Below are positions 50,610-55,505 of a stretch of DNA of 64,000 bases, piece by piece. Where the stretch lies: positions 6,448,001 through 6,512,000 of the forward strand of contig CM035359.1 in the NCBI GenBank assembly GCA_020137815.1. The letters run 5' to 3'. Within the stretch, counting starts at the first letter, position 1. Each line of letters starts with the position of its first letter. Source of the stretch: Hormiphora californensis. Taxonomy: Eukaryota; Animalia; Ctenophora. Below the pieces are notes generated by a model. The model had not been told where the DNA came from and searched no databases. It worked only from the letters and a program-made list of their open reading frames with translations. A program made the translations under genes and the position numbers.

Positions 50610-53360
50610 TAATCCATGGCATTCGGGTATCGAGCCTGGAACTCTGGAAGGGCAGGGGATTTCCTTCACCGGGGTGTGGCCTGAGGGGTCCTGAGTCACC
50701 GGAGGAAAGTTTGCCTCCCGGAACTGTGGGATGGGGGTCGTGATTGGACGTTGATTGGGCCTGATTGGTCGGGGATTCGGAATCGTCGTGGAGGGACGTG
50801 GTTGGTCGCATTTGTTCGGGAATGTTGTTCTGGTCGTCCGGGAATAGTGGTTTATGCCCGGGGACGTCAATTGGATGCTTGGTTGGGCGTAAATTGAGCT
50901 TAATTGGCCTAATGGGTCGAAGTTCGGGATCGTCGTGGAGGAGCTTGATTGGTCGCATTTGTTGCGGAATATTGTCCTGATCATCTAAAGAGTGTGTTCA
51001 GTGCCCAGGGATGTCGATTGGATGCTTGATTGGGCGTTGATTGGGCTTAGTTGGTCGGGGATTCGGAATTTGCCTCAGAAGTCGCGGTGGGTCGCGTTCG
51101 TTCACGGGTATCGGCCTTTTCGCTGGTGCCCCTCGTGCCGTGCTGGGGACCCGACATCCGTCGGGCCCTACCTGGTGCCCCTCTGACCCTCTCGGATGGC
51201 TCTTGGAGCGTGCTGGATGCCCCTCGGGCCCTGGCCGACCTGGTACCTCTGGGAAGCGGCTAGATGGCCATCGGGCTGCTGGATGCCCGTCGGAACTTAC
51301 CTGATACCCGTCAGACCGTGATAGATACCCCTCAAACCCGGTGTGATACCCCCATGACCCTACCTGATACCATTCAGATCCTACTAGATTCCCCTAGTCC
51401 CTCCCAGATACCCTCAGACACGAAGTCCCAGATACCCTCAGACACTACCAGGTAACCCTCAGACCGTGTCTGATACCCCTCACACCCTCCCAGTTAAACC
51501 TCACACCCTCCCAGGTAACCCTCAGACCGTGCCTGATACCCCTCACACCCTCCCAGGTAACCCTCACATCCTCCCAGGTAACCCTCAGACCGTGCCTGAT
51601 ACCCGTCAGACCCTCCCAGGTAACCCTCACACCCTCCCAGGTAATCCTCACACCCCAGATACCCTCAGACCCTACCAGGTAACCCTCAGACCGTGTCTGA
51701 TACCCCTCACACCCTCCCAGGTAACCCTCACACCCTCCCAGGTAACCCTCAGACCGTGCCTGATACCCGTCAGACCCTCCCAGGTAACCCTCACACCCTC
51801 CCAGGTAACCCTCAGACCGTGCCTGATACCCCTCACACCCTCCCAGATACCCTCAGACCCTACCAGGTAACCCTCAGATCGTGCCTAATACCCCTCACAC
51901 CCTCCCAGGTAACCCTCACACCCTCCCAGATACCCGTCAGACCCTCCCAGATACCCTCAGACCCTACCTGACACCCCTCTCACCCTCCCAGATACCCGCC
52001 AGATCTTGCCACTTGCCAGAGACCATATTTGATAGCCCTTGCACCCTACCTGACACCCCTCGGAACAGCTAGATACTCCTCAATCCTGTGTGGTACCTCT
52101 ATGACCCTATCAGGTAGGGCCTACCTGATACCATTCAGGCCCTACTAGATACCCATCTGACGCTACTACACCCCTCCTACGGTGGGTATCACCGTATCAG
52201 GTAGGGTCAGAGGCCGAGGGGTATCTAGTAGTAGTAGAGCTGAGTCAGAGGGGTATCAGGTAGGGTTAGAGGAGTGTCAGGTAGCGTCTGATGGGTATCA
52301 GGTAGGGTGGGAACTGTGAGTGGTATCAGGTAAGATTTGAGCGGTATCAGGTAGGGTGTGAACTGTGAGGGTATCTGGGAGGGTGTGAGGGGCATCAGGC
52401 ATGGTCTGAGTGTTACCTGGGAGGGTCAGACGGGTATCTGGGAGGGTCCGAGGGGTATCAGGCACGGTCTGAGGGTTACCTGGGAGGGTGTGAGGTTTAA
52501 CTGGGAGGGTGTGAGGGGTATTAGGTAGGGCCTTGGGGTATCTAGTAGGATCTGAATGGTATCTGGGAGGGTGTGAGGGTTATCACACCGGGTTTGAGGA
52601 GTATCTAGCACGGTCTGACGGGTGTCAGGTAAGGCCTACGTCTGACGGGTAACAGCTAAGGTCTGACGGGTGTCTAGGAGTCTGGTGGCTGTCTGGTTGT
52701 TTCTTAGAGGTTCCAGGGTCTGGGGGGTGTCTGGCGCGTTCTGGGAGTTGTCTGGGAGGGTCGGAGGGGTGTCGGGTGGGGTCTGGCGGATGTCGGGTCC
52801 CTAGTGCGGTGTGAGGGGTGTCGGTGAAGGGGTTGATGTTTGTGAACGAATGCGACCTGCCGCGGCTTTCTGGGTGGATTTTGGATTTTTGACCAATTAG
52901 GCCCAATTAACGCCCAGTTGAGCATCTGGTTGGCATCTTTGCGCTTTGGACGTATTTTTTGGATGATTGGGATAATATTCCTGAACAATTGCGGCCGATC
53001 GCGTCCTTCTGCGACGGTTTTGGATTTTGACCAATTGGGCCAATTAAATTGGCCCAATTTGGCTCAATTTACGCCCAATTAAGCGTCTAGTTGGCGTTTT
53101 TGGGCATTGATTATTGTTTTTGGATGATCGGAATAGTGTTCCTGACCAGATGCGACCAACCACGTCCTTCTGCGACGGTTTTGAATTTTTGGCCGGTTGT
53201 GCCCGGTTGACGTCCGGTTGCGACCCTTGTCCCACGGTTTTGGGAGGTGGACTTTTTTTTGGTGATTTGGGACCCCTCGGGCTGCACTTTGGTGAAGGAA
53301 GTCCTTTGCCCTTCCAGAGTTTCAGGTTCGGCAAAATTTTTACCCGAATGCCATGGATTA
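50610..53360. mobile_element. 2.75-kb fold-back element with A-to-G hypermutated arms
   Basis: TAATCCATGGCATTCGGGTA / TACCCGAATGCCATGGATTA termini, apparent 3-bp TSD AGT within the 514-bp unit, and inner arms of CCCTCACACCCTCCCAGGTAA-type sub-repeats. Confidence 0.88.
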
Positions 53361-53440
53361 AGTGCTCCTTTCCTGTATCTTTCAACACAGTACCTCTAAT
53401 ATCTGATCTCTAACGCACTCAATACCTGCTCGTTTTCTTG

Positions 53441-55505
53441 TACTAGATTCCCCTAGTCCCTCCCAGATACCCTCAGACACGAAGTCCCAGATACCCTCAG
53501 ACACTACCAGGTAACCCTCAGACCGTGTCTGATACCCCTCACACCCTCCCAGTTAAACCTCACACCCTCCCAGGTAACCCTCAGACCGTGCCTGATACCC
53601 CTCACACCCTCCCAGGTAACCCTCACATCCTCCCAGGTAACCCTCAGACCGTGCCTGATACCCGTCAGACCCTCCCAGGTAACCCTCACACCCTCCCAGG
53701 TAATCCTCACACCCCAGATACCCTCAGACCCTACCAGGTAACCCTCAGACCGTGTCTGATACCCCTCACACCCTCCCAGGTAACCCTCACACCCTCCCAG
53801 GTAACCCTCAGACCGTGCCTGATACCCGTCAGACCCTCCCAGGTAACCCTCACACCCTCCCAGGTAACCCTCAGACCGTGCCTGATACCCCTCACACCCT
53901 CCCAGATACCCTCAGACCCTGCCAGGTAACCCTCGGATCGTGCCTAATACCCCTCACACCCTCCCAGGTGACCCTCACACCCTCCCAGATGCCCGTCAGA
54001 CCCTCCCAGATGCCCTCAGACCCTGCCTGACACCCCTCTCACCCTCCCAGATACCCGCCAGATCTTGCCACTTGCCAGAGACCATATTTGATAGCCCTTG
54101 CACCCTACCTGACACCCCTCAGAACAGCTAGATACTCCTCAATCCTGTGTGATACCTCTATGACCCTATCAGGTAGGGCCTACCTGATACCATTCAGGCC
54201 CTACTAGATACCCATCTGACGCTACTACACCCCTCCTACGGTGGGTATCACCGTATCAGGTAGGGTCAGAGGCCGAGGGGTATCTAGTAGTAGTAGAGCT
54301 GAGTCAGAGGGGTGTCAGGTAGGGTTAGAGGAGTGTCAGGTAGCGTCTGATGGGTATCAGGTAGGGTGGGAACTGTGAGTGGTGTCAGGTGGGATTTGAG
54401 CGGTGTCGGGTAGGGTGTGAACTGTGAGGGTATCTGGGAGGGTGTGAGGGGCATCAGGCATGGTCTGAGTGTTGCCTGGGAGGGTCAGACGGGTATCTGG
54501 GGGGGTCCGGGGGGTATCAGGCACGGTCTGAGGGTTACCTGGGAGGGTGTGAGGTTTAACTGGGAGGGTGTGAGGGGTATTAGGTAGGGCCTTGGGGTAT
54601 CTAGTAGGATCTGAATGGTATCTGGGAGGGTGTGAGGGTTATCACACCGGGTTTGAGGAGTATCTAGCACGGTCTGACGGGTATCAGGTAAGGCCTACGT
54701 CTGACGGGTAACAGCTAAGGTCTGACGGGTATCTAGGAGTCTGATGGCTATCTAGTTGTTTCTTAGAGGTTCCAGGGTCTAAGGGGTATCTAGCACGTTC
54801 TAAGAGTTATCTGGGAGGGTCAGAGGGGTATCAGGTGGGGTCTGACGGATGTCGGGTCCCTAGTACGGTATGAGGGGTATCAGTGAAAAGGTTGATATTT
54901 GTGAACGAATGCGACCTACCGCGACTTTCTAGGTAAATTTTGAATTTTTGACCAATTAGGCCCAATTAACGCCCAATTAAGCATCTAATTGACATCTTTG
55001 CGCTTTGGACATATTTTTTGGATGATTAGGATAATATTCCTGAACAATTGCGACCAATCACGTCCTTCTACGACGGTTTTGAATTTTGACCAATTAGGCC
55101 AATTAAATTGGCCCAATTTGGCTCAATTTACGCCCAATTAAGCATCTAATTGACGTTTTTGGGCATTGATTATTATTTTTGGATGATCAGAATAATATTC
55201 CTGACCAAATGCGACCAACCACGTCCTTCTACGACGATTTTGAATTTTTGACCAATTATGCCCAATTAACGTCCAATTACGACCCTTATCCCACAGTTTT
55301 GGGAGGTAAACTTTTTTTTGGTGATTTAGGACCCCTCAGGCTACACTTTGGTGAAGGAAATCCTTTGCCCTTCCAGAGTTTCAGGTTCGGCAAAATTTTT
55401 ACCCGAATGCCATGGATTAAGTGCTCCTTTCCTGTATCTTTCAACACAGTACCTCTAATATCTGATCTCTAACGCACTCAATACCTGCTCGTTTTCTTGT
55501 ACTAG
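53441..55505. repeat. 2059-bp tandem duplicate of 51382-53440
   Basis: Constant 2059-bp offset; TACTAG at 51382, 53441 and 55500; all differences I found between copies are A/G. Confidence 0.95.

Follow-up and report, generated by a model that had tools for sequence, protein, structure and literature searches.

How does a stretch of genomic DNA come to carry 203 A-to-G changes on a single strand, nearly all of them in segments predicted to pair as hairpin stems? The locus in question lies in a 64,000-nucleotide stretch (the window) of contig CM035359.1 of the comb jelly Hormiphora californensis, where a fold-back element with long inverted arms is followed by a tandem duplicate that lacks one of the arms. 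The changes fall in the sequence context of ADAR, and are likely derived from a plus-strand RNA that was hyper-edited by that enzyme. [quoted passage not shown] The components required to follow the pattern of change are these:

51382 to 53446 and 53441 to 55505, plus strand: tandem duplication, the twins copy 1 and copy 2, with a period of 2059 and no insertions or deletions (indels)
50610 to 51294, plus strand: left arm, hyper-edited, with 115 of 212 A now G (first at 50634, last at 51292) when compared with the reverse complement of the copy 2 right arm
51295 to 52619, plus strand: the 21-base-pair (bp) arrays inside copy 1, first C-rich and then G-rich, with hardly any editing
52620 to 53360, plus strand: right arm of copy 1, hyper-edited, with 71 G (52624 to 53301) by twin comparison; pairs with the left arm in the predicted fold
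53441 to 55505, plus strand: copy 2, by twin comparison a duplicate of 51382 to 53446 without the left arm
53921 to 54510, plus strand: 15 A-to-G changes found in copy 2 alone, clustered at 53921 to 54025 and 54314 to 54510, on opposite sides of an inner hairpin
54679 to 55419, plus strand: copy 2's right arm, which shows no editing relative to copy 1 and served as the reference

Aligned with one another, the twins mismatch at 88 of 2065 positions, and all 88 are A/G differences on the plus strand; there is no difference of any other kind. With strand-symmetric transitions as the null, this has p = 3e-27. The G is carried by copy 1 at 73 sites, 71 of them within 52624 to 53301, and by copy 2 at the other 15. 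Between 52620 and 53345, 71 of 186 A have become G by comparison with the twin, and 0 of 232 T have become C. The segment 51382 to 52619 was scored against copy 2 only, and because this is the sole comparison available there, changes common to both copies are invisible in it.

The left arm extends the pattern and provides its direction. Aligned with the reverse-complemented right arm of copy 2 it gives a spectrum that is overwhelmingly A>G, with 115 such changes against 13 transversions and, among the other transitions, 8 C>T, 2 G>A and 1 T>C, together with four indels of 9–27 nucleotides each. At aligned sites where the two right arms disagree, the left arm supports A at 69 of 70. Five other inverted repeats in the window have mixed mismatches with no A-to-G bias. 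Four near-perfect inverted repeats elsewhere in the window (18294 to 19779, 5542 to 6184, 8588 to 8910 and 60926 to 61459), with arms of 148–557 bp matching at 95–99%, resemble miniature inverted-repeat transposable elements or fold-backs, and they too lack an A-to-G bias. Within 52620 to 53360 there are also ten G:U pairs in which the two right arms share the G; in no such pair does the left arm supply it. The ten may reflect an earlier round of editing or variation within the family.

The probability of change depends strongly on the 5′ neighbour. Over the outer arms together, change has affected 186 of 398 A, comprising 68/97 (0.70) after T, 38/77 (0.49) after C, 61/142 (0.43) after A and 19/82 (0.23) after G (5′ G versus the other neighbours, p = 1.7e-6). 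TAC, TAG and TAT are the most frequently altered triplets and GAG is never altered (0/10), while the effect of the 3′ neighbour is weak (G 39/67 versus T 43/115). Among the changes private to copy 2, TA was affected at 10/48 and GA at 2/40. The ordering T>C~A>G on the 5′ side, with a weak preference for 3′ G, agrees with the metazoan-wide preference of ADAR (PMC9989829), and the same neighbour preference is described in PMC2873906. Ctenophores are reported to have ADAR2-like genes and to lack ADAR1-like genes (PMC4323055).

The changes also follow the predicted duplex. When copy 1 is folded with the changed letters restored to A, the prediction is a near-continuous stem of ~690 bp, formed by 50611 to 51300 with 52620 to 53360. 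In the outer stem region 186 of 406 A are changed, versus 2 of 306 in the interior, and the limits of editing (51292 and 52624) face each other across the arms. In the right arm, where the sites are defined independently of pairing, the predicted fold has 70 of 175 paired A changed versus 1 of 16 unpaired (p = 0.006). Of the 15 changes private to copy 2, 11 are paired in the predicted fold. Three properties of hyper-edited double-stranded RNA are present, namely dense A-to-G change on one strand, depletion of 5′ G with 5′ U favoured, and confinement to a predicted long duplex, in both of its arms. The preliminary description of this locus had proposed such an ADAR signature, citing one-directional differences between the twins, dense plus-strand change in the left arm, a polarity set by that arm and relative sparing of GA; the counts given above bear out each of these points. 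It had noticed the 71 sites in the right arm of copy 1, but had missed the 15 of opposite sense, where it is copy 2 that has the G.

By what route did the edited sequence enter the DNA? The fold-back is a passenger in an 8.2-kilobase (kb) insert at 49436 to 57607, and the whole feature runs from 49422 to 57621; the extent first assigned to it, 50610 to 55505, was too short. The remaining parts of the insert and its borders are:

49422 to 49435, plus strand: left copy of a 14-bp direct repeat, a putative target-site duplication (TSD), identical to 57608 to 57621
49436, plus strand: single extra G, by sequence comparison absent from the monomer and after the right TSD copy
49437 to 50609, plus strand: 2.3 tandem copies of a 514-bp monomer, not edited; monomers 1 and 2 have 2 differences, neither of them A/G
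50610 to 53360, no strand assigned: non-coding fold-back of 2751 bp with perfect 16-bp ends, inserted in monomer 3 and flanked by AGT at 50607 to 50609 and 53361 to 53363
53361 to 53446, plus strand: AGT and the continuation of monomer 3, ending in the microhomology TACTAG that joins copy 2 (junction 53441 to 53446)
55506 to 57592, plus strand: 3′ body of the insert, in which six-frame translation gives a broken plus-strand frame with a CxxC..LTV motif at 57410
57593 to 57607, plus strand: short (ACC)5 tail adjoining the right 14-mer
57608 to 57621, plus strand: right copy of the 14-bp repeat, the second putative TSD copy, following (ACC)5

The two putative TSD copies are identical at 14 of 14 positions, and given the start of the array the chance that this 14-mer should recur within 20 kb is ~1e-4. 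The insert begins at the A of an initiator-like TCAGTT in the monomer, which has 5 initiator-like A per 514 bp. The extra G at 49436 is likely to be a reverse-transcribed cap; at the junctions of full-length L1 copies such an added 5′ G has been attributed to capping (PMC11702581). Together the 14-bp repeat, the extra G, the initiator-like start and the (ACC)5 tail look like what remains when a capped plus-strand RNA is retrotransposed by a non-LTR route. All the end marks indicate the plus strand, and this is the strand that ADAR needs if A-to-I is to be read as A-to-G. With 14/14 identity in the putative TSD, no differences other than A/G over 2065 bp of the twins and just 2 differences per 514 bp between monomers, the insert looks young. 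The RNA intermediate suggested in the preliminary description thus gains marks at the ends of the insert, but the fold-back would not have retrotransposed itself; it would have been carried in a longer transcript.

The fold-back itself has the features of a non-autonomous fold-back DNA transposon, with long terminal inverted repeats, AGT on both sides, 21-bp arrays and no coding frame. The 514-bp monomer (49437 to 50464) contains an internal 64-bp duplication, and scans of metagenomes with a monomer pattern and with a fold-back-end pattern gave 0 and 0 matches. In the 3′ body no Pfam family came near the cut-off in any of the six frames, including endonuclease and reverse transcriptase families, and the insert has no long open reading frame. 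Judged on its sequence, the insert is a passenger or a remnant and not an autonomous long interspersed nuclear element (LINE). The CxxC..LTV motif may resemble the C-terminal zinc fingers of LINEs. A weak Pfam match in the 3′ body was rejected (E 0.24), the possibility that this region is a fragment of a retroviral gag was unsupported in the six-frame Pfam search, and two sub-threshold matches in Rfam were taken as chance. The hammerhead core motif expected of a Penelope-like element or retrozyme is absent from 48600 to 58000. Nor does the locus resemble an APOBEC-edited LTR element, since its polarity is A-to-G and no LTR-element genes were found in the Pfam search. A degenerate CCACC-rich run at 55506 to 55545, following copy 2, resembles the final (ACC)n tail, and may mark another RNA end or a template jump.

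Are the G letters really in the DNA? The left arm was compared with contigs of 4 of the 20 listed sequencing runs, three from one sample (X1, X2 and X4, sample S1) and one from a second sample (X5). The share of sampled words was 0.60–0.63 in four runs of one sample and 0.40 in two runs of the second, and twelve marine or viral metagenome rows with a share <0.2 were left out of the comparison. One entry is recorded as RNA, with a share of 0.07, and was left out too. S1 is possibly the source sample of the window, and the runs are presumed to be DNA. In X2, two exact contigs, 50580 to 50912 (333 nucleotides, depth 16) and 50889 to 51325 (437 nucleotides, depth 15), jointly span all 115 sites. 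X4 has an exact contig of 437 nucleotides over 50889 to 51325 at depth 60, and X1 has exact contigs of 119 and 347 nucleotides within the same interval at depth 227. Exact left-arm contigs, with 0 other letters, are thus found in all three S1 runs compared. Contigs of the fold-back family are present in all four runs, and these have A; each of the 38 G>A rows listed is at a site called edited, and the 2 other rows listed are transversions. The preliminary description had named a family consensus of G or C as a danger to its reading, and the family contigs give A. It had also wished to see the G alleles in DNA reads, and the contigs supply these for the left arm, but the right arm lies outside the check. 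The 514-bp monomer is also found in all four runs, at a summed contig depth ~1000 times that of the edited contigs, a ratio that is not a copy number. X5 has only A at the 25 of 25 G>A rows that it covers, another 13 lying beyond its coverage, with no exact contig among the 8 pieces listed. Contigs cannot prove absence, and for this reason we do not claim polymorphism from X5.

We propose the following sequence of events. The fold-back inserted first into the 514-bp tandem repeat, with a 3-bp duplication of AGT, as can be seen in the sequence. A capped transcript would then have run from the initiator-like site in the monomer through the fold-back to the (ACC)n end, with its arms predicted to pair as the ~690-bp duplex. 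From the spectrum and context of the changes, ADAR would have deaminated 47% of the A in that duplex. The 14-bp repeat, extra G and tail suggest that inosine was then taken for G during target-primed reverse transcription and the 8.2-kb complementary DNA (cDNA) inserted, by a non-LTR reverse transcriptase that would have acted in trans. The edited copy would be constitutional and recent, and presumably inherited. Copy 2's right arm would have stayed unedited for want of a free left arm. This might be achieved in a single transcript, if the duplication already existed and the left arm was taken by the nearer right arm, leaving the second bare. Alternatively, two differently edited RNAs may have been joined by template jumping; the monomer breaks off at one and the same base in both copies (53444 and 55503), the junction has microhomology and the edits are reciprocal. 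L1 insertions built from two RNAs have been documented (PMC11702581). Folding of the two-copy region did not discriminate between the one-molecule and two-molecule models. A broader proposal is that the insert combines two RNAs, edited separately and sharing one 3′ end, into a chimera, and that the 514-bp repeat is a promoter that routinely sends nested fold-backs through ADAR and retrotransposition; we advance this tentatively, and consider it somewhat doubtful.

A number of observations weigh against the reading that we favour. The 14-bp repeat is a putative TSD, and 14-mer repeats are common in 64 kb, with only the position of this one unusual. Extra 5′ nucleotides occur in 12–15% of several classes of human insertions (PMC2912911), making the extra G weak on its own. 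No reverse transcriptase or known part of a retroelement was found in the insert with Rfam or Pfam. The pairing test is circular for the left arm, because its sites were defined against the opposite arm. The inner hairpin of copy 1 is predicted to be like that of copy 2, yet they have 2 and 15 changes, respectively (p = 0.002). The minimum-energy fold of the two-copy region pairs the left arm with the unedited right arm and not with the edited one, and the one-molecule model therefore needs co-transcriptional folding. Read support covers the left arm and does not extend to the right arm, to the junction of the duplication or to the two outer junctions. Lastly, the best-matching runs have just 0.60–0.63 of the sampled words, and with S1 possibly the source and its run type guessed, the contig match is not independent biology.

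What else might generate this pattern? ADAR might have edited the RNA, with RNA-templated repair or cDNA-mediated gene conversion then transferring the edits to a copy already in the genome; the ends of the insert would be left from an earlier, unedited retrotransposition. The spectrum and context cannot distinguish these routes, and the reciprocal, sharply bordered patches in the two copies could be separate conversion tracts. The borders of the patches, however, follow the predicted stems, the insert looks young, and extra events would be needed; we regard conversion as improbable. A process acting directly on DNA is also conceivable. The hairpin might have been copied by an error-prone polymerase, Pol eta for example, or a deaminase might have attacked a cruciform in the DNA or an RNA:DNA hybrid. 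In model RNA:DNA hybrids the DNA can be edited by ADARs (PMC12925331), and DNA hairpins can arise from fold-backs. Against this, a cruciform exposes both strands and yet T->C is 0/232, there are no other types of error in 2065 bp, the five other inverted repeats are unbiased and the family copies retain A. TA is the best context for Pol eta just as it is for ADAR, but CA (38/77) is changed as frequently as AA (61/142), unlike the WA-limited signature of the polymerase. An origin at the level of DNA is in our view still less probable than gene conversion.

The two other explanations question the letters themselves or their direction. Edited cDNA or systematic base-calling errors might have entered the assembly, and the right arm and duplication are outside the read check, with guessed run types and an incomplete word share. 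Yet the 115-site pattern occurs in contigs with 0 differences, wholly in X2 and partly in X1 and X4, at depths of 15–227. Editing of individual RNA molecules or random error would not recur across three libraries, and the fixed pattern is therefore neither fresh RNA editing nor polishing error. Since all 115 G are in the contigs and family copies have A, polishing does not explain the left arm. For that arm the explanation is largely refuted, and for the locus as a whole we think it very unlikely. A two-way comparison alone leaves direction ambiguous, and the differences between the twins could then be APOBEC-like G-to-A changes in copy 2. This is refuted by the family contigs, with A at all 38 listed rows; moreover the left arm backs A at 69 of 70 sites, and the context tracks the 5′ neighbour of the A. 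The chance that the polarity is reversed is negligible.

Elsewhere in the window, a gene for a receptor with LDLa repeats and seven transmembrane segments occupies long exons at 44266 to 48652, and the insert starts 770 bp after it. Its best named match is in Mnemiopsis leidyi, at 33% identity, and its relatives are mostly unnamed; introns or breaks may account for a frame change near 46765 to 46874 and for a stop at 45156. An array of 42/35-bp units extends over ~5 kb (24822 to 29788), interrupted near 25456 to 26283. As a control the 42-bp array was uninformative, its 85 units having variation that is not resolved by site. A 662-codon open frame on the plus strand at 30440 to 32428 is very acidic and repetitive.

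How does this locus compare with known systems? Clustered editing by ADAR disfavours 5′ G and favours 5′ U, as here, but is normally found in RNA only, whereas here it is in DNA. The closest parallel is in pseudogene insertions made by L1, where a capped RNA has its inverted repeats edited before reverse transcription, an extra 5′ G is present and some insertions join two RNAs (PMC11702581). In that study, of cultured human cells in which L1 had been induced, inverted Alu repeats carried ADAR-type clusters in 3 of 235 L1-made insertions. The present example is instead natural, in an invertebrate and probably constitutional, with a duplex like that of a DNA transposon and two reciprocally edited copies. 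In avian retroviruses (Rous-associated virus, and also avian leukosis virus) roughly half the A letters of an inverted repeat are now G, fixed by reverse transcription as proposed here; these are exogenous LTR retroviruses, whereas the present insert has end marks of the non-LTR type, with no viral gene found in it (PMC12925331). APOBEC-edited LTR retroelements of vertebrates likewise have the signature of a deaminase fixed in a genomic copy and read against unedited relatives, although there the change is G-to-A on cDNA and here it is A-to-G on RNA (PMC4866542). Invertebrates and DNA transposons were the negative controls of that APOBEC study (PMC4866542), and both terms describe the present locus. 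DNA-transposon sequence can carry a signature of retro-editing, and such elements are therefore not a clean negative control.

The kind of event is thus already known, and what is new is that the passenger resembles a DNA transposon, that the insert around it is full-length and cap-marked, and that its twins are reciprocally edited. In the open-access literature searched, subscription papers being outside its scope, no natural, inherited ADAR-edited insertion has been reported in an invertebrate. RNA editing is usually taken to spare the genome, and yet this locus has ~200 edits in its DNA that appear to come from one event. With the marks of insertion and an unedited twin alongside, the whole path is legible at a single locus, extending to a natural invertebrate genome a route described in cultured cells and retroviruses. 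It also provides a record in DNA of ADAR preference in a lineage reported to be without ADAR1. If edited RNA was copied back into the genome, then RNA edits would become heritable, and if the promoter and two-RNA reading were true, RNA editing would have a standing means of rewriting the germline of the comb jelly.

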